A DNA stretch of 64,000 nucleotides from Candidatus Portnoybacteria bacterium (GTDB lineage: Bacteria > Patescibacteriota > Minisyncoccia > Portnoybacterales > GWB1-42-6), in assembly GCA_028688325.1 (NCBI GenBank), contig JAQTYI010000001.1, forward strand, positions 104,820 to 168,819, read 5' to 3'. The position numbers and the translations under genes were made by a program. The notes beneath the pieces were generated by a model, which saw only the letters and a list, made by a program, of their open reading frames with translations, was not told the DNA's origin and searched no databases. Of this stretch, positions 24,443 to 40,469 are shown piece after piece (the stretch's first letter is position 1; every line of letters starts with the position of its first letter).

Positions 24443-24766
24443 CTAAAAAATTCCGCTGCAACCGACGGAGAAACAATTGACTATTTCCGTTTTGCCATAT
24501 TCCTTTAAAATTAAATCATTCCCCTGTTCGTTCAGCAGGTCGTCGCAAACCACTTTGGGCTTATTTGCTTCCTTTTTACTTAAATCCGGCGCGCCGGAAC
24601 GGCTGGAGTCATAATTTTCCCTCGGCGGCTGTTTTAGGCCGTAACTAAAACCGTTTTTTGCTTCCTTAATGATTATCCCGACCGCCGCGCTCAGCAATAA
24701 AACGCCCAGAGAAACGATTTTTACTATCTTTTTTGTTTTTTTATTCAATATGGACATATTTTTCAA
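24443..24766 (-). CDS. Small anchored protein with C-terminal Cys cluster (candidate substrate or accessory)
   Basis: 107 aa. TM/signal segment, then ...VVCDDLL...IVNCFSVGCSGIF. The start is TTG at 24766 or ATG at 24757. Confidence 0.35.
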   Translation of the reverse strand: MKNMSILNKKTKKIVKIVSLGVLLLSAAVGIIIKEAKNGFSYGLKQPPRENYDSSRSGAPDLSKKEANKPKVVCDDLLNEQGNDLILKEYGKTEIVNCFSVGCSGIF

Positions 24767-24866: not shown

Positions 24867-25814
24867 CTATCCCGCCCGATAGATAACCGGCTTTAATTCT
24901 TCGTCCCCGTAATGGCCCAGATATGTTTTCCAGATTCCTTCGCACCGGTCGCGCAACCGGCACTTCTGGCACTTGGCGGTTTTAGCCCGACCGACCATGG
25001 CCCGGGAACTCTCCACATCAAAATTAACAAAGTCCGGAGCCAGATGCTCCGTTTTGAATTTTTCAACTTCCAGTAGTTCGCTCACCTGGTCAAGGTAATC
25101 GGCAAAATAACAAAGGGGCACATAACGGATATGCCAATGCCCGGCTTTATTTTTTTTGCCGATATCCAGGCACTGCCGTATAAAAGGCGCGGCTTCCGAT
25201 ATTTTGGGGACAAGTTCTTCAAAATTGTTGTGCGCCGCCCCCTCGTTGCAGTCAACAAAAATAAATTCGCAATTGCGGATGCCGAGCCCCAAAATGAACT
25301 CCCCGATTTTTGGCAGCTCTTGATAATTATGTTTGACGATAGTTGTGTTGGAGCCGATATTTTCAATCCCTAAGAATTCTTTGGCGTTGTTTAAGCCCGC
25401 CAGCAATTGGTCAAAACTGCCCTTGGCCTGGGTCAAAAAATCGTGCGTACCGGCGCTTGCGCCGTGAATAGAAAAAACCACGCTGTTAAGTCCGGCGGCA
25501 AAAAGTTTTTTCGCGTAAGGCCGGTAAGAAAGCATCCGGCCGTTGGTAGCCATCATGATGGTTTTAAAACCTAAGGCCTTGGCTTTTTTCACCAGGCGCA
25601 CAAAATCCGGCCTGACTGTGGTTTCTCCGCCGATGAATTCCAGATAGGTGGTTCCCCTTTTTCTGGCGTCGAGCATTTCCCGCTCGATCTGCGCCGTGCT
25701 TTTCTTGACTAGCCGGCGCTTGTCCGAGTCAATGCAAAAACGGCAATTGTTATTGCACTCATACCCGATGATGATGACGGTTTTTTTTATTTTCGACTGC
25801 TGCTTCCTTTTCAT
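24867..25814 (-). CDS. Radical SAM enzyme, twitch/SPASM-like paralog 1
   Basis: CNNNCRFC, GGETT, TNGRML, SIHGASAGTHD, AKGSF. C-terminal C-x2-C-x5-C (CQKCRLRDRCEGIW). The start is taken as the ATG at 25814, which overlaps the upstream gene stop in an ATGA arrangement. The track gives 25895. Confidence 0.8.
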   Translation of the reverse strand: MKRKQQSKIKKTVIIIGYECNNNCRFCIDSDKRRLVKKSTAQIEREMLDARKRGTTYLEFIGGETTVRPDFVRLVKKAKALGFKTIMMATNGRMLSYRPYAKKLFAAGLNSVVFSIHGASAGTHDFLTQAKGSFDQLLAGLNNAKEFLGIENIGSNTTIVKHNYQELPKIGEFILGLGIRNCEFIFVDCNEGAAHNNFEELVPKISEAAPFIRQCLDIGKKNKAGHWHIRYVPLCYFADYLDQVSELLEVEKFKTEHLAPDFVNFDVESSRAMVGRAKTAKCQKCRLRDRCEGIWKTYLGHYGDEELKPVIYRAG

Positions 25815-27037
25815 AAGCGACTGACCCATTCCAATAAGATATTGGCCAGAGATTTTTCCAGAAGCAAAGTGGTTATCGCTCCCGCGAACATCCACAAGGC
25901 GAACGGAGAACTTTTAAAGACATTCAACGAATCGATATTTTTACCCAAAAGAACCGCCTTGATCTTTTGGGCCCCCTCGCTGCTCAAACCGCCGATGGAA
26001 TCGCCTTTCATATCCGCCAGGCCCATGCTTTCCAGGCAAGCCGGATCAATCGCCATGCCGGGCTTCAGATCCGCAGTTTTCACCGTCTGAAGCTGATTTT
26101 TTTTCGTATAAAAATCCGACAGCCACTGGAACAAAGCCAGCAGAACAACAAAAATAACAGACGCGTTGACCGTCCGATAAAGTATCTGCAAGGTGGCGGA
26201 AAAATCATTTAAAAGGCCGAGAACGCAGATAAGAACGGTTGCCGATATTATCCATTTGGCGGCCCGGGCTTTCTTGATCGCGCCGGCCACGGCTTTATTA
26301 AAGAGAATCAAGGCCGCAAAAATTATCTGCTGCGCGCCCCCCAGATCGATCGACCAGCGGGATTGCGCCAGATGCTGGATGAAGTTGAACGCCAATATCA
26401 GGAATACCGGGATCATCAATCCGTTCAAAAAACTCTTGATCTTGTCTGCGGCCTTGGGCAAAAAATGCGCCCAATCAAAAATCTTTTCCCGCCTCAGCGC
26501 CTCAAAAAAACCGGCAGGATTATCCGCCAGCCGCCGGTAAAAGGAAAAGAAAAAGTGGCCGATCGCGCTGAATAAAAAATAAACCCAAAAAACAAGAAAG
26601 ATGTTGACCAGCAGGACAAAAGAGGGAAAGACCGGCAAATAGGACTTTTGATAATGAAAAAGCGGAATGAGTAGGGAGTAAACGATGAAAAGCTTGGCAT
26701 CGCCGGCCGCCCAAGAGTTGGCTTTCCACATGATAAAGCTCACCACCGCGGCGACAATGAAATTCAGAAAACTTTTCAGCAAGAACGGCAGATTGAAAGT
26801 ATATACCGTCAATGGCGCGTCCGCCGGCAACTTCAAAATTTTGGAATGATAAAAAGCGGTCAGTGAAGGAGCCAAAAAATACCAGACGAGAAACAAAAAA
26901 AGCGCTCCCAGCCCCCAATATAACCCCAAGGTTATCCATTTATTCCTGATCTTATTATATTTTATGTCTTCATAGCTTGTGACCAGTCCAATAAAAAAAA
27001 GCATCGGCAACAACACTATGTCAAGCAATAGCAACAT
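25811..27037 (-). CDS. Polytopic membrane protein with N-terminal A24-type aspartyl peptidase-like domain (TadV/CpaA-like)
   Basis: Motif YEDIKYNKIRN aligns with the YDLRHYIIPD of the pilD in this window. Motif AAGDAKL aligns with GMGDVKL. About 250 aa of additional TM domain follow. Confidence 0.45.
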   Translation of the reverse strand: MLLLLDIVLLPMLFFIGLVTSYEDIKYNKIRNKWITLGLYWGLGALFLFLVWYFLAPSLTAFYHSKILKLPADAPLTVYTFNLPFLLKSFLNFIVAAVVSFIMWKANSWAAGDAKLFIVYSLLIPLFHYQKSYLPVFPSFVLLVNIFLVFWVYFLFSAIGHFFFSFYRRLADNPAGFFEALRREKIFDWAHFLPKAADKIKSFLNGLMIPVFLILAFNFIQHLAQSRWSIDLGGAQQIIFAALILFNKAVAGAIKKARAAKWIISATVLICVLGLLNDFSATLQILYRTVNASVIFVVLLALFQWLSDFYTKKNQLQTVKTADLKPGMAIDPACLESMGLADMKGDSIGGLSSEGAQKIKAVLLGKNIDSLNVFKSSPFALWMFAGAITTLLLEKSLANILLEWVSRL

Positions 27038-27084: not shown

Positions 27085-27597
27085 CTATTTTTTTACTTCA
27101 GCGCACAAAGGAGCGGTTTTAAAATTCCTGTCTCCCCAGCCCCACCAGCCGGCTTTCTGCCCGCTTGCATCCTCAACGGTCACGCCCCAATAATACGGCT
27201 TGTCAAATTCCAATTCCGGCCCGTCAACCGAATAATTTGTTGCCGGCGACTCTTTTTTTTGCGCGTCAAACACCACCATGGGAAAAACATTGTTATAATA
27301 GGCCTGGCTGCTGACCTGAACCTGAAAATATTTTTGATCTTTGGCCGCCGCTTCATCGCAATATTTCCATTTGAAGGTCGGGGTCGGAAAATTTCCGTTG
27401 TAGCATTGCGGCTGCTCGACCGAAACGCTGCAAAACGGGAACGCGACCTCCGGCCCGAAAAATTGCGTCAACTGCAAAGATTGTGTGTCATTCTTTAAAT
27501 AAAACCGGTTAAAAAAATATCCCAAAACGACAACCGCAACGATAATAATGATTATTAATTTTATATTATTTTTAAAAAAATTGGTTAAAGCGCTCAT
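27085..27597 (-). CDS. Membrane-anchored Cys-containing hypothetical protein
   Basis: 170 aa. An N-terminal TM (IIIIIVAVVVLGYFF) and 4 Cys. Confidence 0.35.
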   Translation of the reverse strand: MSALTNFFKNNIKLIIIIIVAVVVLGYFFNRFYLKNDTQSLQLTQFFGPEVAFPFCSVSVEQPQCYNGNFPTPTFKWKYCDEAAAKDQKYFQVQVSSQAYYNNVFPMVVFDAQKKESPATNYSVDGPELEFDKPYYWGVTVEDASGQKAGWWGWGDRNFKTAPLCAEVKK

Positions 27598-27637: not shown

Positions 27638-28588
27638 TTATAATATCACAACATCACCTGCCGGCAAAATGTTATTGATCGGCCGGTAAAAATCGCCGGA
27701 CAGCTCCATTCCTATCTTTTCTTTGACTGGAAAAAAATCTTCCCGGCCGACGCTCTTCAAATATCCTTTATGAATCCCGGAGCAAAGCTTTTTATAGCCG
27801 CATTTGCCGCAAGCCCTGACAAAACTCACTTCCTTGGCCGGCAAAGTCCGCCAAACATACGGCCAGATATTTTTGGCGACTGTGCACAAAGGAAAATGAT
27901 AGAACCTTATATCCTTGAAATCTTTCAGGATCGGCCCGGCTTCGTCAAGATACGGGCGCGCCTGGGCGTAATTAATTTTGACCAAATCAATATTTTTTAT
28001 GGCCTGCGCTTCAAATTCCATAAAAATAACGATTACCCTGTCTAGATCCTGAAATTTATCGCGCAACAGCCGCAGTGTGCCGCCGATATGTCGAAAAGTG
28101 GCTTTATTCAGAACGGTCCTGACGCCTATCTCTTGTCCCGGACGCCTGTTTTCCAAGATTATCCGCAGTCCCTTGGCCGCCTGCTCAAAGCTCCCCGCGG
28201 CCCTGGTTACGCCGTCGTGCACCGCGCTTTCCGGCCCGCAAAGCGACATATCAATTTCCAGATTATTGGTCACGGCCAAAAATTTTTCTGCAAAATCCCG
28301 ATAAATGAATCTCCGTCCGTTGGTTAAAAGCTTGATGCGCTGAGCGGGAAATGTTTTAGCCAAGTATCTAAAAATATCCAAAAAACGCGGGTGCAAGGTC
28401 GGCTCCCCGCCTGTCAGATAAATGGATTCGGCGGCTTTTATTTTTTTCCGGTTTTTTTCAAGCCGCCCGATGATCGCTTCAAAAGAATAATCAAAACTGC
28501 CGTCCCAAGCTGGCCAGGGCCTGTCGGGGTTGGTGCACATCAAACATTTGTTGTTGCATCTGTCCCAGACGCAAAGATCAATGGTCAT
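27638..28588 (-). CDS. Radical SAM enzyme, paralog 2
   Basis: CNNKCLMC, GGEPTL, TNGRRF, C-terminal CGKCGYKKLCSG. Confidence 0.8.
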   Translation of the reverse strand: MTIDLCVWDRCNNKCLMCTNPDRPWPAWDGSFDYSFEAIIGRLEKNRKKIKAAESIYLTGGEPTLHPRFLDIFRYLAKTFPAQRIKLLTNGRRFIYRDFAEKFLAVTNNLEIDMSLCGPESAVHDGVTRAAGSFEQAAKGLRIILENRRPGQEIGVRTVLNKATFRHIGGTLRLLRDKFQDLDRVIVIFMEFEAQAIKNIDLVKINYAQARPYLDEAGPILKDFKDIRFYHFPLCTVAKNIWPYVWRTLPAKEVSFVRACGKCGYKKLCSGIHKGYLKSVGREDFFPVKEKIGMELSGDFYRPINNILPAGDVVIL

Positions 28589-29460
28589 AATTTAAATTCC
28601 TTCGCGCCGTATAAATTTATGTAATACTGGTGGACGCCGGCGCACTTTGAGACATAAGCGCATTTGGCGCACAAATCAAAACGGACTTTCTGCGGGCTTT
28701 CTTCCAGACACGGAAAAGACAGGTGCCGATATTTTTTAGGAAAAATGCAAGGCGGATACTCAACAAACAAAAATTTGGCCAAAGCACCGAATTTTTCCTG
28801 GATTTTGATGAGATACGGCGCAGCTTGCGACATCTTTGCTATGATGCAGCGGGAATTTACGATGTTTTTGTTGAAGGGCAGGATGTGCCCGATATTAATC
28901 TCTTTTACTCCCAGGTCAATGTAAAATTTTACGATTTTAAGTAGCTCCTTGTAGTTAAGTTTGGTAACCATAACATTCAAGACCAAACTTAATCTGCGCT
29001 CTTTTTGCAAAGCAATGAAATTTTTTATTCCTTGCAGTGTTTCCTTGAAGCTTCCCTTGGCCGCGGTATGCCTGTCGTGCAGCAGAGCGTTGCACCCGGC
29101 CACCGTTATCACTGCCTGGTCCAAGCCGCTGTCGGCCAGCTTGTGCGCAAAATCCGGATAAGCCAGCAAACGGCCGTTGGTGGTTATCCCGATCTGCGAG
29201 AATTTCAAACCTTTGGCATATCTTATCAACTCAAAAATGTCCTTGCGCAGAGTCGGCTCCTGCCCCATAAAATTAATGAGATCAAATTTTTCTCTGATGG
29301 CGGCGATCTCGCGCCTGAGCTCGTCCGTGCTTTTTTGGCGGAAAATCAGGTCCCTTTCAAAGCAATAAACGCAGCGGTTGTTGCAAACATCGCCGGCGTA
29401 AACAAAGGGGCTGGCGCCCACCGGGCCCTGATAATTTTCTCTTTTAATGGCTGCCCTCAT
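28585..29460 (-). CDS. Radical SAM enzyme, paralog 3
   Basis: CNNRCVYC, TNGRLL, AAKGSF, C-terminal CAKCAYVSKCAG. ATGA overlap with paralog 2. Confidence 0.8.
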   Translation of the reverse strand: MRAAIKRENYQGPVGASPFVYAGDVCNNRCVYCFERDLIFRQKSTDELRREIAAIREKFDLINFMGQEPTLRKDIFELIRYAKGLKFSQIGITTNGRLLAYPDFAHKLADSGLDQAVITVAGCNALLHDRHTAAKGSFKETLQGIKNFIALQKERRLSLVLNVMVTKLNYKELLKIVKFYIDLGVKEINIGHILPFNKNIVNSRCIIAKMSQAAPYLIKIQEKFGALAKFLFVEYPPCIFPKKYRHLSFPCLEESPQKVRFDLCAKCAYVSKCAGVHQYYINLYGAKEFKL

Positions 29461-29476: not shown

Positions 29477-30466
29477 TTATTTTACCGGTTTGAGCTCTGT
29501 CAAACCGAAAAGTTCGGCGTAAGAGCGCCAAACACCGTGGCAAGCGCTGTTATATTTGCATTGCTGGCAAACCGGCGCTTTGATCTTTTTCCCTTTCATC
29601 GATTCGTCGAGCATCGCTTCAAATTCCGGCCCGATAAGCAAAGTGCCCAGCGGCCCTAGATCATTGATATATATCTCGTGACCCGGTACCAGGCAAGGCA
29701 CCATATTATATATGAAAGATTGCACTCTTCTTGCCGTTAAATTATTAACAATATCTATGGCCCGGCAAAGATACGGCGCCACCTTGCTCATCGGGGCGAC
29801 AATATCGGTATTATCAATGGCATTGCCTTCAAGCATGACCATGGTAAAACGAATTTCTTGAATCTTAAAATTCTTCAATAAAAATTTAACATGCTCTTCC
29901 AGCTGTTTATAGTTTAATTCCAGCATAACTATGTTGATCTTGACCTTGTGGCCGAGTTCATTGAGATTTTTTATTCCCTGGAAGGCCTGTTTGAAAGTCC
30001 CCGGCACGCCCATGATCTTGTCGGCCAGCTCGGGCTTGTGGGAATGGAAAGAAACCACAAAATTATTAACGCCGCTGTCAATTAATTTCCGGCAATATTC
30101 TTTGTACGCGTAAACCCGGCCGTTGGACTGGACTTCAATATGAGATAGGCCGATCTTTTTGGCGTAAGCGGCCAATTCCGGCAGGTCCCGGCGTAAATTC
30201 GGCTCGCCGCCCGAAAAAGCGAAACCCGCCGCCTTCATTTCCTTTACCCTGTCTATATCTTTTTTAACATCCTCAAAGGGACGCACGGCATGATAATCGG
30301 CGCTGCCGATGTTGCGCTTTATTTGGAGCCCCGTAGAACACATCAGGCAATTGCAATTGCACTTAAAAATCACCAAACTTTCCACTTTGCTCGCCTGCCT
30401 CCCCTCTGGCATTGTTTGTTCTTCTATATTTTTTGTATTTTGCTTAACTGTATTTTTTTTAACCAT
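29477..30466 (-). CDS. Radical SAM enzyme, paralog 4
   Basis: CNCNCLMC, GGEPNL, SNGRVY, C-terminal CQQCKYNSACHG. Confidence 0.8.
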   Translation of the reverse strand: MVKKNTVKQNTKNIEEQTMPEGRQASKVESLVIFKCNCNCLMCSTGLQIKRNIGSADYHAVRPFEDVKKDIDRVKEMKAAGFAFSGGEPNLRRDLPELAAYAKKIGLSHIEVQSNGRVYAYKEYCRKLIDSGVNNFVVSFHSHKPELADKIMGVPGTFKQAFQGIKNLNELGHKVKINIVMLELNYKQLEEHVKFLLKNFKIQEIRFTMVMLEGNAIDNTDIVAPMSKVAPYLCRAIDIVNNLTARRVQSFIYNMVPCLVPGHEIYINDLGPLGTLLIGPEFEAMLDESMKGKKIKAPVCQQCKYNSACHGVWRSYAELFGLTELKPVK

Positions 30467-30469
30467 AAA

Positions 30470-31450
30470 TTAATTAAGGCAGCCGTGTTTTGCCGCCAGT
30501 TTTTTTATTTCCGCGCCGCCGTAACGGTTTAAATATTCCCGCCAAATGCCGCCGCATTCCTTATAATACCGACAGCCGGCGCAAATGGCAATGTTTTCCC
30601 GGTAGGCATCCGCGAAAATCCCCTCTTCATTTTTTTCTATGCGTTTGGGGTCATATCCAACCTGATAGCTTGTTTCCGCCCGTTTTTTGGCGTTGACCAA
30701 GCAGACATTTTTCAAAGACCTAATCTCGGGCGAAAAAACGCAAAGCGGAAAATCAAAAAAACCAAGCTCCTTAAAATCGCCGGCGATCGATGCCAGAGAA
30801 TTCAGTTCTTTGGCCAATTCAGCCAAACGCACGGCCAAAATATCATAAAACTTTTTGGCATTGCCGTCGGGGATCAGATCCAGCAAATACCAATGCTTGA
30901 CCCCCAGGCCCCGCACAAAAGCGCCGAACTTTTCCAAAGATTTATGGTTCAAGCGCGAAATGACCGAGCTGATGTTTAAATGGACTGGCGGAAACTTTTT
31001 TATGTTTTCTATCCCCGCCAAAATTTCGCCAAAAGATCCCGGCACGCGCGTCAGCGCTTCATGCGTTTTTTTATCCGGCCCCAGCAATGAAAAAGTCACT
31101 TTATTGAGCCCGGCCGCCACGATCTTTTGGCAAAAATCCGGATAACCCAGCAGCCGACCATTGGTGCTCAGCGCAATAGTTTGATACCCTATGTCTTTAG
31201 CCGCTGCCACCAGATCAAAAATATCGCGCCGCAGCGTCGTCTCCCCGCCAGTGAATTCAACCCCGTTAAAACCCTCTTCCCTGCCTTGCTTCAGATCTCC
31301 TATCAGATCATGATGGGTCCGATCCGGGTAAAATTTTTCTTTTCCCCTGATCGAACACATCAGGCAGTTATTGTTACAGGAAAAGCCGACCAGCACCAAA
31401 AGGCCTTCGGCGATCGGTTCTTTTTTTTCAGCTTTTTTCTTTTCAGGCAT
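30470..31450 (-). CDS. Radical SAM enzyme, paralog 5
   Basis: CNNNCLMC, GGETTL, TNGRLL, C-terminal CAGCRYYKECGG. Confidence 0.8.
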   Translation of the reverse strand: MPEKKKAEKKEPIAEGLLVLVGFSCNNNCLMCSIRGKEKFYPDRTHHDLIGDLKQGREEGFNGVEFTGGETTLRRDIFDLVAAAKDIGYQTIALSTNGRLLGYPDFCQKIVAAGLNKVTFSLLGPDKKTHEALTRVPGSFGEILAGIENIKKFPPVHLNISSVISRLNHKSLEKFGAFVRGLGVKHWYLLDLIPDGNAKKFYDILAVRLAELAKELNSLASIAGDFKELGFFDFPLCVFSPEIRSLKNVCLVNAKKRAETSYQVGYDPKRIEKNEEGIFADAYRENIAICAGCRYYKECGGIWREYLNRYGGAEIKKLAAKHGCLN

Positions 31451-31459: not shown

Positions 31460-32479
31460 TTAATAATACCGCCGATGGCAGCAACAGCCGCAAATCGCGG
31501 GCAACCCTCCTTTTTTAATTTGTTTGCGGAAGCCGGCCAAAGCCGGCCCCTGCCAGATCTCTTTAATGCCAGCTGATTTTAAATTACCCAAAATAAAATT
31601 ACAACCCAAAACTCCGCCGCCTGGCGAAACATCAAGATCGGGTAACAAGCTCAAGCCAAGCCATGGCAAAAAACAATCTTTTTTGAATCTATCTTTGCCG
31701 GCGGGAAAATAAAAATCGGCCAGATCTCTCTTTTTGACCGCCGGAACAAAAATGACATCAAAGGGCAGGTCCATTTTCTCCAGCGCCGACATTTGCGCCG
31801 CTATTTCTTCAGAATTCAGCTTTGTCGGCTTGGCGTTGGCGGCAAAATAAGGGTGCTGAAAAGACAAGAGGTTTATTTCAATCCGATTATCAGCAAAATA
31901 TCGCGCGATCTGCGCCAAACGAAAAAAATTATTTTCTCCAATTAAGCAGTTAACATTGATTATCTTCTTGTTCCGCTTCCCCTTCTCCAGGGCGCGCATC
32001 TTCTTTATCCCCGCCAGTGCCAATTCGAAACAGCCGCGCAGTTTCCTTGCTTCATCATGCGTCTCGCCCAGATCATCCAATGAAACATTGATCTGGTCCA
32101 AGCGCGACGAAGATAAAATTTCAGCCCGGCGGCCCAGCATAACGCCGTTAGTTGTCAGGGAAAATCTGAACCGGCCGGCGTCAAGCGACTTTACTATTTT
32201 TTCAAACTCCGGGTGCAACAACGGCTCTCCCCCGAACAAATGTATCCGGGGTTTGATAAAAAATTTTTTGGCCTCTTTTAAAATACGCTCAAAATCACCC
32301 AAAGCCATAAAGCCCTTTCGACCGCGGTAAAAATCGCCGTTTTTTTGGTAGCAAAAAGCGCAATCGCAATTGCATTCCAAAGTCAGATGGACCAGCAAAA
32401 AAAGCGGCGAGGGGCCGCCGAAAAATCTTATCGGAGCAAAAAATTTTGATGATTTACCGATTATTTTTTTCAGATTCAT
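31460..32479 (-). CDS. Radical SAM enzyme, paralog 6 (divergent Cys-rich C-terminus)
   Basis: CNCDCAFC, GGEPLL, TNGVML. C-terminal GGGVLGC...CGCCCH. Confidence 0.75.
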   Translation of the reverse strand: MNLKKIIGKSSKFFAPIRFFGGPSPLFLLVHLTLECNCDCAFCYQKNGDFYRGRKGFMALGDFERILKEAKKFFIKPRIHLFGGEPLLHPEFEKIVKSLDAGRFRFSLTTNGVMLGRRAEILSSSRLDQINVSLDDLGETHDEARKLRGCFELALAGIKKMRALEKGKRNKKIINVNCLIGENNFFRLAQIARYFADNRIEINLLSFQHPYFAANAKPTKLNSEEIAAQMSALEKMDLPFDVIFVPAVKKRDLADFYFPAGKDRFKKDCFLPWLGLSLLPDLDVSPGGGVLGCNFILGNLKSAGIKEIWQGPALAGFRKQIKKGGLPAICGCCCHRRYY

Positions 32480-32483: not shown

Positions 32484-33692
32484 TTATTTAGCCGATCCGT
32501 TCTTGATCAAATTATTTGATCTTATTATTTCACTCAGCATTTGCGCGGCGACCGCGTGTCCCCTTTCGTCGTAGTGGCCGCCTTCATCGCCTGTTTCCAA
32601 TTTTGATTTGACATCCCGCACATCGTCCACGCGGTCGCAAATATTGGCATAAAATATATCCTTGCCGCCGGCAAACTTTCTCAATTTTTTGTCGAGCTCC
32701 GCACCCCGATATTTCCTCTTAGCCAGACAGAGATTCTCGCTGGCAAAAGCCGGAGGGAAATTAATCAGTATGAAGGGGATGTTTTTCTTTTTGGCCAACT
32801 CGCCAAATTCAGCCAAAGAATCAAAAGCGGCGTTCATGGTGTCGTCGGTAATACTATTTCCGGCATATATTAGATTCAATTTATAAGACACAAATCTCAT
32901 AAAATTTGAATTTTTCAATAAAAAAGAGCTGGTGCTCCGGCCGACCATCGGCAGCATCGGGACTATCTTATCGCCGACCAACAGCACATCAGTTTTTGTG
33001 CTGACGCTCTGGCCGCTGCCGTTGAATCCCAATTGGTATCTGACCGGCCCAAGGTCGTTATTGGTGAATTGAAGGATCAAAAGATCCGGCTGGAGCCCAA
33101 GGCCGATTTCTTTGAATAATTTCAATTCCTGATAAGTATTCAGCCCGCCGTCCGATAAATTTATGACCTGGACCGGGACTGCCTTTTCGGGCGCATCCTT
33201 AGTTAATAATCCTTCCAGCTGATTAGTGTATATGCTGCCGTTTTTCTGAGGACTCTCCAGGCCGGCGCCGGTCGTAAACGAGTCGCCTACGGCCAATATC
33301 CGGAAAGTGCCTTCTTTTTCAATCTTCGTATTTCTCAAATACCACTGCTCGGAAATTTTATTATCACTTAGATCATAGACAAGGCCGTCTTCTCTGTCGA
33401 TATACGCGTCGTTCTTAAAAAAATTTTCCAATATGCTGGCCTTCCAGCGAGTATGCTCGTCATATATGCTTTTCTCGTCAAAAAATAATCTGCTGGGTAT
33501 TTCCAGCGCCGAAAAAACAGCCGCCATGGCTACGATGGATATCGCGATATTTATTATGTATTTGCTCAAAAGATCCCTATTGATCGATTTCATTAAAATA
33601 TCGTGTAGATAAAAGGCGAAAGGGCGCTTTCCTGGCCCAGAACGATCAGCAAACCGGCTAAGGCCAGCATCACGATGATCGGCGCCAACCAC
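32484..33692 (-). CDS. Membrane-anchored SGNH/GDSL-family hydrolase
   Basis: GDSx block AVGDSFTTG. C-terminal DEGGHYDERGH (DxxH). An alternative start is the ATG at 33593 (MKSINRDLL... followed by a TM). Confidence 0.6.
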   Translation of the reverse strand: MVGADHRDAGLSRFADRSGPGKRPFAFYLHDILMKSINRDLLSKYIINIAISIVAMAAVFSALEIPSRLFFDEKSIYDEHTRWKASILENFFKNDAYIDREDGLVYDLSDNKISEQWYLRNTKIEKEGTFRILAVGDSFTTGAGLESPQKNGSIYTNQLEGLLTKDAPEKAVPVQVINLSDGGLNTYQELKLFKEIGLGLQPDLLILQFTNNDLGPVRYQLGFNGSGQSVSTKTDVLLVGDKIVPMLPMVGRSTSSFLLKNSNFMRFVSYKLNLIYAGNSITDDTMNAAFDSLAEFGELAKKKNIPFILINFPPAFASENLCLAKRKYRGAELDKKLRKFAGGKDIFYANICDRVDDVRDVKSKLETGDEGGHYDERGHAVAAQMLSEIIRSNNLIKNGSAK

Positions 33693-33769
33693 CAGGCCTT
33701 CCTAACTTTCAAAAAATCCCAGATTTCCGCCGACAATGATTTATTTTCTTGTTCCATAAAATTGATCTA

Positions 33770-35485
33770 TTATTGTTTTTTTATTAAAAAATTACCCATG
33801 ACCAAATAGTCTATCCCGGTATTCAAGAAGCACAAATAAGCGTCTTTCAGCGAAGAAACTATCGGCTCGCGATTTATATTGAAAGAAGTATTGACCAGAA
33901 TCGGCACTCCCGATATTTTACCAAACTTCTTGATTAAATCATAATACGGCGGATTATCGCTTCTCTTGACGATTTGCGGGCGGGCAGTGCCGTCAATGTG
34001 GCAAACCGCCGGAATTTTTGTTTGCCAATATTTTTTTATCGGACAGACCGCCAGCATATACTCGGCCGGGATAAAAAGCGCTTTGTCCAGCTTAAAATAT
34101 TCTCCGGCGTCTTCACGGCAGACGGCGGGAGCGAACGGCCGGAAATTTTCCCGATGCTTGACCCCCAGATTCAGGATATCTTTCATTTTCGGGTTCAGCG
34201 GATTGGCTAAAATGCTTCTGGCGCCCAGCGCCCGCGGCCCCCACTCTTCCCTGCCCTGAAACCAACCGATAATTTTGTCTTCGAATATCAACCGGGCGGT
34301 TTTTTCAACCAATTCTTTTTTATCGGCAAATTCATGATATGCCGCCCGATTCCGATCTAAAAATTCTTTGATTTCCTGATCGGAATATTCCGGCCCCAGA
34401 TAAGCATCGGGCAGCAGCCGGCGATTCCCATTGGCGAAGATTTGATGATAGGCGAAAAGTGCCGCCCCCAGGCTCGTTCCGCCATCGGCAGCATTGGGCT
34501 GTATCCAAACATTTTTAAATTTGGTTTTTTCCGGGATCTTTCCGTTTAAAACACTGTTTAACGCCACCCCGCCGGCCAAAATGATATTTTTGCATTTATA
34601 AATATCGTATAGATGGTTCAATATTTTGAAAACCGCCTCTTCCGTTATCATCTGCAGGGCCGCAGCGATGTCTTGGTGCCGCTTTTCTATCGAAGAATCT
34701 TTTTCCCGAACCGGGCCACCAAGCAACGAACACAATTTAGACGATGGCATCCGGCCGGCATAATGATACTCAAAATAGCTCATGTCGATCCTGAAACTTC
34801 CATCTTCCTTGATATCTATCGCTCCCCTTAATTTTTCATAATAAATATTTTTCAGCTTGTCTTTTTCCCCGTATGCGCCAAGCCCCATAACCTTATATTC
34901 CGAGTCATTGACCGGAAAGCCCAGATAAGCGGTAATTGCCGAATAGAACAGCCCCAAAGAGTGCGGAAAATTTATCTGACCGGCAAGCTTTATTCTGTCC
35001 TTATCGCCAAATCCGTAAGCGGTCGTCGCCCACTCACCAGCTCCGTCAACGGTCAAGATCGCCGCCTTTTCAAAAGGGCTACAGAAAAAAGAACCGGCCG
35101 CGTGCGCCTGATGGTGCTCAACGAACAAAACGCTTTTTTTATATCCTAATTTTTTTCTGACCGCTTTCATTATCCGCAATCTTTCGCCCAGCCATACCGG
35201 AATAACCGCTAAAAACCGGCGCCAGCCCCGAGGAAAGGTCTCTATGAACTGACAAAGAAGTCTTTCAAATTTCAGTAAGGGCTTTTCATAAAAGACGATG
35301 AAATCGATTTCATCGATCAAAATTCCCTGGCTGGACAGACAATAATCGATCGCTCCGGAGGGAAAAGAATTGTCGTGCTTTTTCCGCGTCAATCGCTCCT
35401 CTTGGATGGCCGCCACCACTCGGCCGTCTTTTAGCAGGGCGGCGGAAGAATCATGAAAAAAACAGCTGATGCCTAAAATATACAT
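33770..35485 (-). CDS. NodU/CmcH/TobZ-family carbamoyltransferase
   Basis: N-terminus MYILGISCFFHDSSAALL is the family signature. 571 aa, the same size as TobZ. Confidence 0.75.
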   Translation of the reverse strand: MYILGISCFFHDSSAALLKDGRVVAAIQEERLTRKKHDNSFPSGAIDYCLSSQGILIDEIDFIVFYEKPLLKFERLLCQFIETFPRGWRRFLAVIPVWLGERLRIMKAVRKKLGYKKSVLFVEHHQAHAAGSFFCSPFEKAAILTVDGAGEWATTAYGFGDKDRIKLAGQINFPHSLGLFYSAITAYLGFPVNDSEYKVMGLGAYGEKDKLKNIYYEKLRGAIDIKEDGSFRIDMSYFEYHYAGRMPSSKLCSLLGGPVREKDSSIEKRHQDIAAALQMITEEAVFKILNHLYDIYKCKNIILAGGVALNSVLNGKIPEKTKFKNVWIQPNAADGGTSLGAALFAYHQIFANGNRRLLPDAYLGPEYSDQEIKEFLDRNRAAYHEFADKKELVEKTARLIFEDKIIGWFQGREEWGPRALGARSILANPLNPKMKDILNLGVKHRENFRPFAPAVCREDAGEYFKLDKALFIPAEYMLAVCPIKKYWQTKIPAVCHIDGTARPQIVKRSDNPPYYDLIKKFGKISGVPILVNTSFNINREPIVSSLKDAYLCFLNTGIDYLVMGNFLIKKQ

Positions 35486-35491
35486 AAAAAA

Positions 35492-35743
35492 TTAAAATTG
35501 CCTGAAAAAATTATCTTTTTTTTCGCCAACTATGCTCCGTTTTTCCCAATAAGTTTTTGCTTTTTTATCAATATCTAAACTTAGAAATTTTTTGCCCATT
35601 ATTTTTGCCGCCAAAAAAACCGAACCCGCGCCAAAAAAATAGACCAGCGCCAACAAAAATAAATTTAAAAAAATTCCGATATTTTCGGAGAAAACGACGA
35701 ATCCCTTTCTAAGACCTTTAAAAAAATGCGTCCTTGCGGTCAT
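35492..35743 (-). CDS. Small membrane hypothetical
   Basis: 83-aa ORF with one TM. It overlaps the GT2 start by 25 nt. Confidence 0.25.
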   Translation of the reverse strand: MTARTHFFKGLRKGFVVFSENIGIFLNLFLLALVYFFGAGSVFLAAKIMGKKFLSLDIDKKAKTYWEKRSIVGEKKDNFFRQF

Positions 35744-36599
35744 AAATTGATCTACTGATCAAACGGCCCAAAAAATAGAGTGCCGCGACCAAAGCCCCCA
35801 CCAAAAAAATCCCCGGATAGCCGGCCCTCCGGAACAACAAAAAGTAAAAAAAGGCGGTGAAAAAACAAAAAGCCGAAGTAAAACCGAGTTTTTGACCGAT
35901 CTTTTCCGGCTTAACGCCCCGGAAAGATATCTCCGCCCTTTTTTTGAACAGAAAGAATATGTTTCCCAGTCCGTCGCGCCATTTTCTCAATTTGACTTCG
36001 CCGATCCGGTCAGCATAGCCGATCGGCACTTCGGCGAATTTGAGACCCTCGGCCAGCAGCGCCTCCATTTTTATCTCTTCAGACAGCGCCATCCCCTTGC
36101 TTTTGAGCATGAACGAAAAAAGAACTTTCCGCTTAAACACCCACATGCCCGACTGGGAATCTTTCATCCTTTTTGCCGTCATCAAAAAAAACAGAGCGGT
36201 CAGTATCGCGTTGCCGAATTTATTGATCGTCTTCATTGAGCCGCTTTTTTTCAAAGGGAATCTGGCTCCGGAAATAAAATCCAGATCCCGGTCAAAGAAA
36301 ACCGCCAGAAGCCCCTTAACCTCTTCAATGGGATAAGAATTATCGCCGTCCATCGTCACAATAACATCTCCGCCGGCCGCCCGGAAACCGGCCTGATAAG
36401 CCGCTCCATATCCCCGCCGCGCCTCAAAAACGACTTTGGCGCCCAATCCTTCGGCCACCTTCGCGCTTTTATCGGTTGAGCGGTTGTCGACCACTATAAT
36501 TTCGTCGAAAAAATCCGGCCGGCGTTCCAGGATTTTTTTTATTCCTTCTTCTTCGTTATAGCAAGGAATGACCAACGAGATCTTTCTATCGCAAAACAT
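35718..36599 (-). CDS. Family 2 glycosyltransferase (Dpm1/GtrB-like, C-terminal TM anchor)
   Basis: VIPCYNEE, VVDNRSTD, TMDGD (DxD). Confidence 0.7.
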   Translation of the reverse strand: MFCDRKISLVIPCYNEEEGIKKILERRPDFFDEIIVVDNRSTDKSAKVAEGLGAKVVFEARRGYGAAYQAGFRAAGGDVIVTMDGDNSYPIEEVKGLLAVFFDRDLDFISGARFPLKKSGSMKTINKFGNAILTALFFLMTAKRMKDSQSGMWVFKRKVLFSFMLKSKGMALSEEIKMEALLAEGLKFAEVPIGYADRIGEVKLRKWRDGLGNIFFLFKKRAEISFRGVKPEKIGQKLGFTSAFCFFTAFFYFLLFRRAGYPGIFLVGALVAALYFLGRLISRSIYDRKDAFF

Positions 36600-36607
36600 A
36601 ATCGGCG

Positions 36608-38548
36608 TTATTTAACTTTCATCTTATACACGGATAAGAGCCCTTGAGTGAAAAGCAATTCTTTTTTTTCCAGATTATCCCGCAAAAAACGGCAACCCCG
36701 GTCGGCGAACAAAGGATCAGAGCAGAGGCGGTCGCCGATATAAACCAAGCACTCATTTTTTTTCACTTCCCGCAAAAAGAGATGCTCCGTTTCGTCGTTC
36801 ACTAAAGAAAGAGAGGCGGTTTGCCGGCGATTATCCTTGAAATAATCGCTGGTAACCACCATATGCTGGCTGGTTATTATCAAGCACCCGTTGGGAATTC
36901 TACCGATCGCCATCCAGTAATCTTGGGGGGGATAAATCAAAGAACGGTCGCCTTTCTTGTCCGCCCGGGCATCTTGGAAGATAACGCCGGGAAAATAAAC
37001 CGATGAAATCTGCTCCCGAGAGACCATCCTGCCGGAAAAGTAAGAGAGGGCTCCGCCGGGCTTAGAAAAAGGAAAATAAGAAATAATATTGAAAGACGCG
37101 GCGGCCAAAAAGACAAGCAGCAAGTTCAATGCCAAAAATCGCCGTCCTTTCATCGGATTGAAAGAATAAAATCCCCAGCCGGCGATTATCGCCATCGGCA
37201 GATGGAACATCAGCGAGCGGCGATAGTAATCCCCCGTCAAAGCGCCGGTGCCGCTGATATTGCCGTCAAAAAGCATGCAATAAACCAGAAAATAAGCGCC
37301 AAAAAATCCCCAGGGCAGCCAGTGTTCTTTTTCTTTCCAATAGGAAAAAAGCAGCGCCGCGGCCGCCAGAAAAACCAAAGAAACCAAAAGATCATAATGC
37401 CAGATCCCGCTTCCCAGGGGCGACAGATTGAAAAATTGCAGAAAAAACGCCCAAGCCGGTAAGGCCGCCGTCTTTAACGACAACGCAAGAAAACCGATTT
37501 TTCCTCCTTGATAAGTGCTGTAAGGATTATTGAACAGGAGCCAATGCAGCACCGGCAACTGCAAAATGATAAAAAACAAGGCAAAAGACGCCACCATAAA
37601 AAGCCCTTTGAAATCCGGCCGGCCGGACAACAAAGACAAAAACCATGACTTGATTCGCGGCCAATTGAAAACCAGCAGGAAAAACAGGAAAAAAGGCACC
37701 AGAACATAACTTTCCTGCCTTATATAAATGGCGTAGGACAAGCTGGCCAGCCAAGCCAGCCAGACGGCCGGCCGGCCGTTTTTTTGCGCCAGGATGAAAA
37801 GCAGCAGTGCCAGCCCCGCGAAAAAAAGACCCGCCGGGCGCGCCTCGCCGCTCTGCGAGTTGATGATATTGAGCGGAATCAAAGAAAAAACCAGCGCGGC
37901 ATAGAGCCCCGCTTCTTCTTTTTTGAAGACAAGGTATGCGATGAGGAATGCCAGCAGTATCGTCAAGCTGCTCAGGATCGCTGAGATAACTGAAGCGTTC
38001 AAACTGTGTATCCCGAATACCAGATGAGCCAAAGCAATGAGGAAAGGAAAACCGGGCGGCGCCAAAACCTGCTCAAACAGCTGGCAATCAGCATGGGTTC
38101 CTAGCGCACAAGATTTAACGAACTGGCCGTGCAGGACCCAAAGATGGGCCGATTCTTGCGCCACATAGCCGTCGGTATGCGGCCCCAGCCAATACTGGGC
38201 GTTTCTCACCCAAAAACCATATAAAAAAATCACCAGCAAAAGCAGCCAGATTTTTTTATCTATTTTTTTCACTTCTTCCCAAGTGCGCCGGGCGTTTATG
38301 GCAACTAGAAAAACCAGCAGCGAAAAATGCGCCAACATGAAATAAAAAAGCCAACTTTGGAAGATTTTATAACCGAACATAAAGGGTATTAAACTCCAGA
38401 ACAAAGCCCTGGGCTCAAAGCCGGAGAATGCCCCCGCAATTGCGTGGTTAAGGCATAAAAGGGCCCTGTATTTTGTTTTCACTCGAACAATATGCCCCTG
38501 GCGCATTGTCCTCGCTATCCAAAATAAAAAACTCCCCGGCTTAAACAA
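36608..38548 (-). CDS. Large polytopic membrane protein, GT-C (ArnT/PMT-like) glycosyltransferase candidate
   Basis: 646 aa with more than 12 TM segments. It is paired with a GtrB-like GT2. There is no sequence-level proof. Confidence 0.35.
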   Translation of the reverse strand: MFKPGSFLFWIARTMRQGHIVRVKTKYRALLCLNHAIAGAFSGFEPRALFWSLIPFMFGYKIFQSWLFYFMLAHFSLLVFLVAINARRTWEEVKKIDKKIWLLLLVIFLYGFWVRNAQYWLGPHTDGYVAQESAHLWVLHGQFVKSCALGTHADCQLFEQVLAPPGFPFLIALAHLVFGIHSLNASVISAILSSLTILLAFLIAYLVFKKEEAGLYAALVFSLIPLNIINSQSGEARPAGLFFAGLALLLFILAQKNGRPAVWLAWLASLSYAIYIRQESYVLVPFFLFFLLVFNWPRIKSWFLSLLSGRPDFKGLFMVASFALFFIILQLPVLHWLLFNNPYSTYQGGKIGFLALSLKTAALPAWAFFLQFFNLSPLGSGIWHYDLLVSLVFLAAAALLFSYWKEKEHWLPWGFFGAYFLVYCMLFDGNISGTGALTGDYYRRSLMFHLPMAIIAGWGFYSFNPMKGRRFLALNLLLVFLAAASFNIISYFPFSKPGGALSYFSGRMVSREQISSVYFPGVIFQDARADKKGDRSLIYPPQDYWMAIGRIPNGCLIITSQHMVVTSDYFKDNRRQTASLSLVNDETEHLFLREVKKNECLVYIGDRLCSDPLFADRGCRFLRDNLEKKELLFTQGLLSVYKMKVK

Positions 38549-39485
38549 AATTCAAAAAATACGCGGCTAATTGCTCGTTGTTGCGCCATTCGAAGATTTT
38601 TTTAGCTCCCTTGAAAACCGAAAAATGCTCCCTGCCAAAAACTATCTTGTTGCCGCCAGCAATCCCCTTTTTCACAGAGAGCAAAGCCGCGCCGTCCCTT
38701 TCTTTTTCTCCGAATTCCGGATAACTAGCCCTGAGATATCTCGCCCGCTCGTAAAAAAGCCCTCCCCGGCCCGCCTTTCCGTCGAATAAAAACCCTTGCC
38801 GCCTGTCCCAAGAATTATAAATATTCTCGCCGACCGGATCTAAAAAGATCAGCAACGGTCTTTTCAGGAGGCCGACCAGCTCCCGATAAAATTCCGGCGA
38901 ATCTTTTTTGACGCAAGCCATGATCTTTTTATGGTAAGCCAGGGTGCTCTTGCAGGAAAAGGAACAGGGCAGATGGAAAGAGAGATAATGATTGGAAATG
39001 CCGTTCAAAAAACTGTTCATCAAAAAATCAATCTTCGGCGGGATCTCTTTAAAAATAGGGCTCTGCGCGGCGGTGACCGAATGCGTCACATTTTCGATGT
39101 AGCGGTCGACACAGCAAGCCGGATAGCCCAAAAGCCGGCTGAATTCCTTGACTTCTTTCAGCGCCTGGCCGAAGTCTTTTTTTTCTATGATGATTTTGAA
39201 AGACGGATCGACCCTCTTGGCTTTCTTGGCCGATTTCGCGTCAAGCGAAAAATAGATGTTATGTCTGCCCAGCAATTTTTTGTCGCTGACAGCCATCTTC
39301 AGCCCCCATTTTTTGCACACCTCCCGATAAAGCGCCAGGTCTTCCTCCTTGCTGATCTCTCCCCGAAAAACTTTTTTCAATCCGTTCTTGACGGCGATGA
39401 GATCCACCGAAGAGAGCAGCATATCCCCTCCCCAGAAGCCCCTAACGCTCTCGCCCGGCCAGAATGTTTTTTCTTTTTTTGCCAT
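38541..39485 (-). CDS. Hypothetical Cys-motif protein (LGYPACC motif)
   Basis: 314 aa, embedded in the rSAM array. Motifs GYPACCVDRY and HLPCSFSCK. Confidence 0.4.
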   Translation of the reverse strand: MAKKEKTFWPGESVRGFWGGDMLLSSVDLIAVKNGLKKVFRGEISKEEDLALYREVCKKWGLKMAVSDKKLLGRHNIYFSLDAKSAKKAKRVDPSFKIIIEKKDFGQALKEVKEFSRLLGYPACCVDRYIENVTHSVTAAQSPIFKEIPPKIDFLMNSFLNGISNHYLSFHLPCSFSCKSTLAYHKKIMACVKKDSPEFYRELVGLLKRPLLIFLDPVGENIYNSWDRRQGFLFDGKAGRGGLFYERARYLRASYPEFGEKERDGAALLSVKKGIAGGNKIVFGREHFSVFKGAKKIFEWRNNEQLAAYFLNFV

Positions 39486-39486
39486 G

Positions 39487-40383
39487 CTATTTCTTTACCG
39501 GCTTAAACTCGCTCCATCCGAAAATCGCCGGATATTCCTTCCAAGGACCCTCGCACCGGCTAAAATACTTGCAGGAACGGCATTTGGCCGCCTTTTCTTT
39601 GCCGCTGTTGCGGCGATAATCGCCGTAATCGGCCACTGTGAAATTAGAGTCGTAGATGCTGGTCTTGGGCATGATATCTTCGGCCACGCATTGTTCATAT
39701 CCCCTCAAAAAACAGAACGGAACGGCTTCGGCGGTGACTCTTTTGCCGGCCTTGAGGCCGATCTCAAGGCCCTTTTTCAGATACGGCATTATCTCGCTTT
39801 TTTTAGGCACAAGCCACTTTTCGTTCTCCTTGGCCGAGCCCAGGATATGCACGAACGCGAATTGGAACTGGTCCACTCCCAAATCCACCAAAACCTTTGC
39901 CAGTTCCGGCAAAAATTTATAATTGCTGCTGGTGATAACGGAATTGGTCAAAACGAATTGGTTTAATTTTTTCAGGTTCTTGATGCCCCGCGTCGTTTGC
40001 TCAAAGCTCCCTTTGGCCGCCGTCAGAGAGTCATGGATCTTCGCATTGTGGCCATGAAGCGACGGGCCAAATTGCGTGGCTCCGGCCCTGATGGCCCGAA
40101 CGCAAAAATCAGGATACGCGAAAATCCGCCCGTTGCTCTGGATCTGAATTTCTTCAAAGCCGATCTTTTTGGCCGCCGCGATCAATTCGAGAAAATTAGT
40201 GTGTAAACTCGGCTCGCCGCCGGTGAAGACCACTTCCCTTTTTCCCGCCGCAAAAGCTTCTTGCAGCGAATCGACCACTTCCTTTTTGCTTTTGGACGGA
40301 AGGGTTTCCCGTTTCCTGCCTTGCACGCAAAAAACGCAGTGGTTGTTGCAGTTAAAGCCAACTTTTATGTCCACTCTTTCCAT
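39487..40383 (-). CDS. Radical SAM enzyme, paralog 7
   Basis: CNNHCVFC, GGEPSL, SNGRIF, AAKGSF, C-terminal CRSCKYFSRCEG. Confidence 0.8.
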   Translation of the reverse strand: MERVDIKVGFNCNNHCVFCVQGRKRETLPSKSKKEVVDSLQEAFAAGKREVVFTGGEPSLHTNFLELIAAAKKIGFEEIQIQSNGRIFAYPDFCVRAIRAGATQFGPSLHGHNAKIHDSLTAAKGSFEQTTRGIKNLKKLNQFVLTNSVITSSNYKFLPELAKVLVDLGVDQFQFAFVHILGSAKENEKWLVPKKSEIMPYLKKGLEIGLKAGKRVTAEAVPFCFLRGYEQCVAEDIMPKTSIYDSNFTVADYGDYRRNSGKEKAAKCRSCKYFSRCEGPWKEYPAIFGWSEFKPVKK

Positions 40384-40405
40384 ATATAAATATCGCTAAA
40401 AATAG

Positions 40406-40431: not shown

Positions 40432-40469
40432 TGCGCCGTAAACATCAAAACCGGCCGGCTCCGGCAATG

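Follow-up and report, generated by a model that had tools for sequence, protein, structure and literature searches.

A divergent A24-like membrane peptidase gene within a His-Xaa-Ser supercluster of Patescibacteria, a candidate leader peptidase for HxsA4-type repeat proteins

We describe a gene for a predicted aspartyl membrane peptidase of the A24 type that lies within a large His-Xaa-Ser (Hxs) gene cluster of a Candidatus Portnoybacteria genome (NCBI GenBank assembly GCA_028688325.1). The stretch of DNA analysed comprises 64,000 nucleotides of contig JAQTYI010000001.1 (positions 104,820 to 168,819 of the forward strand); it is referred to below as the window, and all coordinates are those of the window unless a locus label precedes them. 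The gene (25811-27037, minus strand) encodes 408 residues with around ten transmembrane (TM) helices and an N-terminus predicted to lie outside, and we coined the label A24L for the divergent A24-like subfamily to which it belongs. Judged by profile and motif comparisons, A24L very probably falls within the A24 superfamily as a divergent subfamily, and the comparisons support its description as an archaeal-type member of the A24, or GxGD, polytopic aspartyl membrane peptidases, with catalysis predicted. Because A24L travels with radical SAM (rSAM) and Hxs genes across bacteria and archaea, it is the best candidate for the peptidase that removes the leader of HxsA4, the His-Xaa-Ser (HxS) repeat protein of the cluster, and we lean slightly towards A24L being a dedicated HxsA4 leader peptidase. 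The observations behind this proposal are A24 homology at the level of the family, conservation of two Asp residues, predicted topology, synteny with Hxs genes in both bacteria and archaea, and a leader motif in HxsA4. What is new is an Hxs system that carries its own predicted GxGD-type peptidase; in the searchable literature, we found no paper tying A24 or Arc_PepC to Hxs.

A first-pass annotation of this DNA had drawn attention to two motifs in the open reading frame (ORF) at 25811-27037, and both are present. YEDIKYNKIRN occupies residues 22-32 (26942-26974), with the codon of D24 at 26966-26968, and AAGDAKL occupies residues 110-116 (26690-26710), with the codon of D113 at 26699-26701; in the latter motif, Ala replaces the first Gly of GxGD. 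The annotation had aligned these motifs with YDLRHYIIPD and GMGDVKL of a PilD encoded some 20 kb away, which is indeed a bona fide, canonical PilD (4769-5596, minus strand, 20.2 kb distant; A24_N_bact 1.2e-33, Peptidase_A24 1.9e-15) and served here as the comparison gene. The Asp dyad proved to be a feature of the whole family, whereas the motif match to PilD taken by itself did not reach significance. Among 84 distinct aligned relatives, which belong to Patescibacteria (the candidate phyla radiation, CPR), Omnitrophota, Elusimicrobia and DPANN archaea, D24, D113, W104, K115 and L116 are invariant, and G112 is kept in all but one sequence (83/84). On the PF01478 profile, D24 and PilD D123 each map to around position 14, a correspondence by offset that ignores gaps and is not a residue-level alignment.

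Since the window protein stays below the PF01478 cut-off, its assignment to A24 rests on family-level evidence. Comparison with PF01478 (Peptidase_A24) gave a divided result, in that the protein itself is sub-threshold, whereas the profile matches the same region in 32 of 40 full-length homologues (E < 0.01, best 4.2e-7). The orthologue at locus L056 clears the gathering score, with 27.3 against 26.5 bits. Arc_PepC (PF06819) is matched by five of the 40 homologues (best 3.7e-9), and six archaeal orthologues clear its cut-off of 23.4 bits with scores of 24.5-36 bits. The family consensus scores 24.0 bits on PF01478 and on Arc_PepC alike (cut-offs 26.5 and 23.4). A profile of close homologues was aligned by hhalign, end to end, with a distant, Arc_PepC-bearing profile (probability 100%, E 2.8e-71, 354 columns). 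Public protein searches returned 123 homologues of the window A24L, and a profile search of 1.84 billion representatives yielded 2207 clusters (50% identity) when E was limited to 1e-3 and 749 when the limit was 1e-30. An identical protein from a Candidatus Portnoybacteria metagenome-assembled genome (MAG; GCA_028710785.1) is public under the NCBI name 'MAG: prepilin peptidase [Candidatus Portnoybacteria]', although 'prepilin peptidase' is probably a misleading functional label for A24L genes. None of NCBIfam, PADLOC and Pfam holds a model specific to A24L, Pfam offering the generic A24 and Arc_PepC models only. No A24L sequence had a significant NCBIfam match (one unrelated family appeared at chance level, E 0.11), PADLOC gave no match for A24L and only generic viperin-like rSAM matches, and by Pfam A24L lacks the A24_N_bact domain.

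The predicted architecture is that of a single conserved unit. In the full-length AlphaFold2 model (predicted local distance difference test score, pLDDT, 87.5; predicted template modelling score, pTM, 0.81), the predicted A24-like catalytic core comprises residues 1-167 (TM1-TM5; 26537-27037, minus strand, as are all parts of the gene), and the Pfam match covers residues 13-147. D24 is predicted at the cytoplasmic end of TM1, and D113, in A-A-G-D113-A-K-L, at the cytoplasmic start of TM4. Four extra, subfamily-specific TM helices (residues 200-307; 26117-26440) were delimited by the AlphaFold2 model, hydropathy and full-length alignment to Arc_PepC-bearing relatives. Beyond them lie a cytoplasmic alpha/beta domain with the motifs LKPGM and GL(T/S)xxQ (residues 308-378; 25904-26116), which corresponds to Pfam Arc_PepC in relatives, and a last TM helix, FALWMFAGAITTLLL (25859-25903), with the family motif PFAxWMFxG and an F379 that is kept in 81 of the 84 sequences. 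Going by sequence, the counterpart of this final helix in PilD may be the last one, PFGPFLxFG; the A24L helix gave the best local hhalign match to CPR PilDs, at a non-significant E of 0.09. The first-pass annotation had noted around 290 residues of additional membrane domain, and AlphaFold2 and hydropathy resolve this part into about six further TM helices and a cytoplasmic alpha/beta domain of around 70 residues. Its description of the protein as a fusion to a large membrane protein does not hold, however, as the whole architecture of around 400 residues, including the C-terminal 260, is conserved in the family and aligns throughout in the hhalign comparison above. The positive-inside pattern, taken family-wide on the model helices, places loops 1, 3, 5, 7 and 9 in the cytoplasm: mean counts of Lys plus Arg are 3.8, 6.7, 2.2 and 13.4 in predicted inside loops, the last of these belonging to the alpha/beta domain (residues 308-378), against 0.3-0.8 outside. 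Together with the model helices, this pattern predicts that the two Asp residues lie on the cytoplasmic side of the membrane, where the first-pass annotation would have them.

The 'rSAM array' in which the gene had been placed is, on the profile matches of its members, an Hxs supercluster. It runs from 52827 to 24443 on the minus strand as one series of 31 co-directional genes over 28 kb, with a largest gap of 205 nucleotides, and A24L is embedded in it, as annotated, and coupled to it translationally. The stop codon of A24L and the start codon of a downstream HxsC4-like rSAM gene (24867-25814, minus; 315 residues beginning MKRKQQSK; NF038332 HxsC4 164.8 bits, cut-off 500) share the letters ATGA, an overlap that had been reported and that can be read directly in the sequence (...CGC TTA TGA AAA...). 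The cluster begins with a bona fide His-Xaa-Ser system, in which three core Hxs genes and the candidate substrate exceed their curated cut-offs, all on the minus strand: HxsD (51748-52290; TIGR03976 60.6 bits, cut-off 50), an HxsD-like gene (51518-51841; NF038315 68.7 bits, cut-off 41), the radical SAM/SPASM maturase HxsB (50042-51514; TIGR03978 541.5 bits, cut-off 370), and HxsA4, with 132 residues (49499-49897; NF038313 92.2 bits, cut-off 55).

Linkage of A24L to such genes extends far beyond this genome. We collected 80 A24L loci from a scan of one genome per species and annotated them by phmmer with the window proteins; L-numbers are the labels of these and other loci. Within 10 kb of A24L, an rSAM or HxsB gene occurs in 75 of the 80 loci, HxsB, HxsD or HxsA4 in 34, HxsA4 in 22 and pilus genes in seven, while an Ig-like protein gene neighbours A24L in 24. 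Among the DPANN archaea, Woese-, Nano- and Aenigmarchaeota carry compact operons of the order A24L-HxsD-HxsD-like-HxsB-HxsA4; in one of these (L073), genes overlap or are separated by at most 33 nucleotides, with 2 nucleotides between A24L and HxsD. The order in Omnitrophota is HxsD-HxsD-like-HxsB-HxsA4-rSAM-rSAM-A24L, and both rSAM genes are orthologous to the nearest rSAM genes on either side of A24L in the window (24867-25814, E 1e-119; 27638-28588, E 1e-76), the orthologue of the former directly following HxsA4 in L038 and L064. Other gene orders preserve the linkage in the CPR loci L017, L040, L048, L055, L081 and L083. Individual look-ups likewise found rSAM arrays around A24L in CPR and Omnitrophota, and HxsD, HxsB and an HxsA4-like ORF in Elusimicrobia. 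In an archaeal MAG, a single ORF of 853 residues (L061:8195-10756, plus strand), followed by HxsD, HxsD-like and HxsB, is a fusion of A24L with a PMT_2 glycosyltransferase (Pfam match at residues 446-602, E 5.9e-10), which suggests that A24L and PMT_2 act on the same membrane-inserted substrate.

HxsA4 has a conserved leader on which such a peptidase might act. In the window protein, the leader reads MRKKLPQIKKDIRTFLTSEEG and then KIIKKDMAK; it is followed by a hydrophobic segment (ISLVVLSLGAGLSGLAKA) and around 25 H[AGS]S repeats, and the protein ends in ...NSY. The N-terminus common to 27 HxsA4 homologues reads P-x-[IL]-K-K-x-I-x-x-F-L-x-[SG]-E-E-G, then [KR]-I-[STN]-K-x-x-h-h-K-x-[GAS], with conservation at P(-16), K(-13; 25/27), K(-12; 26/27), F(-7), L(-6), E(-3), E(-2), G(-1), I(+2) and K(+4). 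The Gly of EEG is found in 26 of the 27, the exception having Ala. After the leader comes a hydrophobic stretch of about 15-20 residues, directly abutted by a G/A/S residue, and most homologues then have an AxA-like site (AKA/D, ASA/G, THA/G, VEA/G and others, the slash marking the site) ahead of the HxS repeats; the C-terminal residue is Trp or Tyr in many. A regular expression for the leader found ORFs in 21 of the 80 A24L loci and none in a reversed-sequence control, and within the window it found HxsA4 only. In L081, the leader (MKKKKLPQIKKDIASFLNSEEGKITKK...) is carried by an ORF (1993-2643, plus strand) between HxsB and A24L whose core of 216 residues is rich in Cys, Asp, Ser and Tyr and has no HxS repeats, so that the leader behaves as a portable module. 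The exact HxsA4 sequence, with either this start or a Met28 start, is absent from the public protein collection; the gene was apparently not called in the deposited genome. In both strands, the repeat DNA of HxsA4 also gives rise to spurious long ORFs (49465-49797, 49473-49736 and 49252-49812).

Other potential substrates were considered and rejected. The first-pass annotation had taken the peptidase to imply a substrate with a prepilin-like (class III) or other membrane-proximal cleavage site, but a prepilin-signal regular expression applied to the whole window matched only the two true type IV pilins beside PilD (5728-6192 and 6401-6835, minus strand; G/FTLIELL signals), and a canonical G/FTLIE substrate in the array is therefore rejected. 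Neither the Ig-like proteins nor a downstream ORF of 104 residues (24443-24766) have conserved N-termini, and all were rejected as primary substrates. The further suggestion that the protein serves a modified peptide is strengthened by the conserved leader of HxsA4 and by Hxs synteny, while the export role proposed alongside it is unsupported.

We infer that HxsA4 is the substrate, and likewise where it is cut and in what sequence the steps occur, as follows. HxsA4 would be made with a conserved cytoplasmic leader of about 21-32 residues, followed by a hydrophobic segment of 15-20 residues and then the HxS repeats. In the cytoplasm, HxsB, HxsD and HxsC-like rSAM enzymes would use the leader and modify the repeats. 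The hydrophobic segment would then enter the membrane, leaving the leader on the cytoplasmic side, where A24L, with its Asp24/Asp113 dyad at that face, would remove it. The cut could fall either after the invariant EEG Gly or after the small residue abutting the hydrophobic segment. A cut at the former would leave K-I-S-K-K...h-region...AxA, a textbook Sec-type signal peptide with a basic n-region, and a cut at the latter would have a class-III-like geometry. Cleavage would allow the matured repeat protein to be exported or released, and at the outer face the PMT_2 and carbamoyltransferase module may decorate the exported product. The broader idea, that an intramembrane aspartyl protease of the GxGD type was recruited to remove the leader of a radical-SAM-modified protein, unmasking a Sec-type signal so that only the matured HxS-repeat protein is exported, is put forward tentatively, since for us doubt slightly outweighs belief.

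The best-studied relative of this system is the four-gene HXS (HxsA/B/C/D) of Escherichia coli, which blocks the entry of phage DNA (Li et al., Nat Commun 2026, PMC13128918). Its anti-phage activity was first shown experimentally in 2026 and is known for the E. coli-type system only; 99.7% of HXS systems are in Pseudomonadota, and 99.8% have four genes (PMC13128918). HxsA must get to the periplasm, bears a +8 Da modification in the HxS repeat, and undergoes an essential N-terminal cleavage other than signal-peptide removal (PMC13128918). The responsible protease was not identified, 'additional host factors' were invoked, and dedicated chaperones or accessory translocators were suggested for HxsA (PMC13128918). 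The 2023 PADLOC collection contains no HXS models. An unassigned HxsA protease in the E. coli system implies a need for such an enzyme, which we count in favour of A24L as the HxsA4 leader peptidase. The published system leaves open both the enzyme for N-terminal cleavage and the coupling of export to radical-SAM maturation, and A24L offers a candidate answer. If the proposal is correct, A24L would stand for a new class among the leader peptidases of modified peptides and would reveal what type of enzyme the published HXS model lacks, and HXS-like envelope systems would extend to CPR bacteria and DPANN archaea. The large Hxs variant of CPR, Omnitrophota, Elusimicrobia and DPANN, with its candidate A24-type peptidase and leader-bearing precursor, provides a testable protease-substrate pair.

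Several results weigh against A24L being an A24 enzyme that cleaves HxsA4. The window protein scores 17.2 bits on PF01478, below the gathering score of 26.5 (E 0.0073, profile positions 3-97 of 104), and has no match to Arc_PepC in Pfam. By hhalign, the A24L profile against the window PilD gave an E of 0.29 with the GD motif alone aligned, and against six CPR PilDs the non-significant matches covered only the last helix and the GD motif. Neither the protein nor any of three family profiles retrieved an A24 or FlaK entry from PDB by sequence, and Foldseek searches of PDB with the full model and a separate N-terminal model (pLDDT 78.6) gave nothing significant and no FlaK-like structure. HxsA4 lacks a canonical class III signal, as the residues before its Gly are acidic rather than basic, and about ten basic or polar residues separate that Gly from the hydrophobic segment. 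The canonical four-gene HXS cleaves HxsA without any A24L gene (PMC13128918). Finally, in a reciprocal test that took the HxsA4 leader as seed for 80 metagenome loci, A24L was found in only one of them, and in none of the 30 loci of at least 10 kb. These loci come from the closest, CPR-type relatives, with fetched flanks of at most 10 kb and runs of rSAM genes downstream; because such flanks are shorter than the 22.4 kb between HxsA4 and A24L in the window, the test is counted neither as support nor as refutation.

The sub-threshold Pfam score, the non-significant hhalign comparison with PilD and the lack of a structural or PDB sequence match to FlaK could mean that A24L is no A24 homologue at all, and that its motifs arose by chance or convergence in an unrelated polytopic membrane protein. 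The search of 1.84 billion representatives points the same way, since, with only 2207 proteins returned, the A24L profile must miss most canonical A24 proteins. We nonetheless find this very unlikely, given that 32 of 40 members independently match PF01478 in the same region, that Arc_PepC, which is defined on archaeal A24 peptidases, scores above its cut-off in orthologues and in the family consensus, that D24 and PilD D123 share an approximate profile position (by offset, gaps ignored), and that the predicted topology agrees with the A24 paradigm. The protein might instead have lost, or never have had, peptidase function in this setting, acting as a membrane scaffold, translocation partner or leader-docking receptor that hands the modified protein to the Sec or glycosylation machinery. 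Such a role would give meaning to the four extra TM helices and the cytoplasmic domain, which have no assigned catalytic role, and would suit the chaperones or accessory translocators suggested for HxsA (PMC13128918). It would leave the absolute conservation of both Asp residues, G-D-x-K-L, W104 and N145 across 84 sequences from two domains of life to be explained, a pattern expected of an active site, and we consider it quite improbable.

If A24L is an active peptidase, its substrate might lie elsewhere. A24L might simply be a second peptidase for prepilins or pseudopilins, acting on type IV pilus-like proteins and placed among rSAM genes by accident; this would account for the A24-like sequence and for the NCBI name. 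It would also account for clusters that abut a pilus operon (L004, L005, L011, L032, L034, L037 and L057), for the ...PilC-pilin-PilD series often found directly upstream of HxsD in HxsA4-seeded loci, and for small proteins with weak N_methyl matches downstream in L006. Yet the window has a complete canonical PilD beside its only two G/FTLIE ORFs, A24L lacks A24_N_bact, and pilus genes occur in seven of the 80 loci against 75 for rSAM or Hxs genes (10 kb). Together with the tight archaeal linkage to HxsD, HxsB and HxsA4, down to the 2-nucleotide gap of L073, this makes a pilus role distinctly unlikely. An active protease of the Hxs cluster could also cut another of its products, either the adjacent Ig-like protein or one of the membrane enzymes in the glycosylation module. 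The Ig_Rha78A_N protein is the immediate neighbour of A24L in 24 of the 80 loci, the L061 ORF joins A24L to PMT_2, and a distant homologue in L007 is accompanied by PMT_2, GT2, carbamoyltransferase and a single rSAM gene. The Ig-like N-termini, however, are not conserved and contain no Gly-bearing leader, the Ig-like gene is missing from compact archaeal operons that keep A24L with HxsA4, and the sole strongly conserved N-terminal leader in A24L loci is that of HxsA4; we therefore regard a different substrate as unlikely. On balance, we modestly favour the view that A24L cleaves the HxsA4 leader and is integral to the HxsA4-type His-Xaa-Ser system rather than to the type IV pilus.

The remainder of the cluster, all on the minus strand, is rich in rSAM genes. 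Directly upstream of A24L lies an N-terminally anchored Ig-like protein (27085-27597; Ig_Rha78A_N, Pfam 9.3e-10), and a second Ig_Rha78A_N-like copy stands at the cluster head (52327-52827); the two paralogues thus bracket the cluster, and one has a conserved C-terminal GWWGWG...F...PLC motif. Next come an HxsC-like rSAM gene (27638-28588), with the best TIGR03977 score (154.3 bits, cut-off 267.9), and four further tandem rSAM genes (28585-29460, 29477-30466, 30470-31450 and 31460-32479, the last with SPASM). A glycan-type module (32484-38548) contains an SGNH hydrolase, DUF5989, a carbamoyltransferase, an 83-residue membrane protein, GT2 and PMT_2 (GT-C). The interval from 38541 to 49293 encodes DUF483, six rSAM proteins, a 73-residue protein, a 331-residue protein of no family, a class III aminotransferase, GT4 and an STM4011-like rSAM protein. 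At least 13 rSAM genes are present in the cluster. Their best models are HxsC and HxsC4, and all score well below those cut-offs; no HxsC-like gene reaches the HxsC (267.9) or HxsC4 (500) cut-off, the best scores being 154.3 and 164.8 bits.

Some of these genes recur elsewhere. DUF483 is a family described from archaea; the window protein (38541-39485, minus) has counterparts in 19 of the 80 A24L loci, in CPR and Omnitrophota, and this recurrence is consistent with DPANN archaea and CPR bacteria having exchanged the entire system. A small protein of 69-73 residues and no family is encoded between rSAM genes in the window (40470-40691, minus), in L005 (826-1035) and in L006 (3299-3508), and recurs in the CPR clusters L011, L016, L017, L020, L023, L025 and L029. 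It has the motif ...FLxTxTxF(D/N)...ETFLF(I/V)N.(F/M)PY(E/A)E... and its role may resemble that of the HxsD-like protein, as a small chaperone or a subunit for recognition. Directly upstream of the cluster is a giant ORF (53623-63999, minus) of at least 3458 residues, which contains large duplicated stretches and carries a phage tail collar domain (1.9e-16) as well as three Peptidase_S74 (endosialidase chaperone) domains (7.1e-44); GC content around it is 0.52-0.55, against about 0.45 elsewhere. Between this ORF and the cluster head lies an IS200-like Y1 transposase gene (52884-53603, minus; Y1_Tnp 1e-09).

In many CPR genomes, the Hxs supercluster directly adjoins the type IV pilus operon, in some by one end and in others by the opposite end. 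HxsD is preceded by ...PilC-pilin-PilD in L099, L101, L107, L115, L122, L126, L132 and L167, and A24L-rSAM is followed by PilM... in L004, L005, L011 and L057; in the window, the pilus operon and the Hxs cluster are about 10 kb apart. Six of the 30 long HxsA4-seeded loci abut a pilus operon, which is above expectation for genomes of about 0.8 Mb, though the lineages are not independent. This proximity raises the possibility that HxS-repeat proteins are functionally connected with the pilus or DNA-uptake apparatus.

Compared with the A24 family (PilD, TadV/CpaA and archaeal FlaK/PibD/EppA), A24L is likewise a polytopic membrane protein, with a first Asp just after TM1 and a second in G-D-x-K-L at the start of a later helix, both predicted on the cytoplasmic side. 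It shares with the family a weak but recurrent similarity to PF01478, and some of its relatives share with archaeal A24 enzymes a recognisable Arc_PepC-type C-terminal region. It differs in having around ten TM helices and 400 residues, in A-A-G-D for G-x-G-D, in falling below the Pfam cut-off, in lacking A24_N_bact and any PDB or Foldseek tie to FlaK, and in being encoded with rSAM and Hxs genes, not pilus or archaellum genes. A Gly at -1 is a hallmark of the substrates of A24 enzymes (PilD, FlaK, TadV). HxsA4 likewise has an invariant Gly between leader and hydrophobic segment, but in the context E-E-G then K-I-S-K, not [KR]-G followed by a hydrophobic stretch.

The window system and the E. 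coli HXS, or the His-Xaa-Ser models of Haft, have in common HxsB, HxsD and an HxS-repeat protein above curated cut-offs, HxsC-like rSAM genes (here below the HxsC and HxsC4 cut-offs), and, as further common ground, an effector that in E. coli needs export and an N-terminal cleavage distinct from signal-peptide removal. The E. coli-type system has four genes and no peptidase gene, and its HxsA has five repeats, a peptidoglycan-binding domain and an N-terminal signal peptide, with no long leader. In contrast, the window system has around 31 genes, at least 13 of them rSAM genes, with glycosyl- and carbamoyltransferases, around 25 repeats, a conserved HxsA4 leader of 21-32 residues, and A24L. The hosts of this variant are CPR, Omnitrophota, Elusimicrobia and DPANN, not Pseudomonadota. 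A further parallel may be drawn with the C39 peptidase domains of peptidase-containing ATP-binding cassette (ABC) exporters (PCATs), which cut after Gly-Gly: in both cases, a leader that recruits maturases would be removed at a conserved Gly by a cluster-encoded, membrane-coupled enzyme. The enzymes differ in catalytic class and fold, C39 being a cytoplasmic Cys protease and A24L a predicted intramembrane Asp dyad, and whereas C39 is part of an exporter, the Hxs cluster has no ABC transporter and HxsA4 carries its own Sec-like hydrophobic segment.

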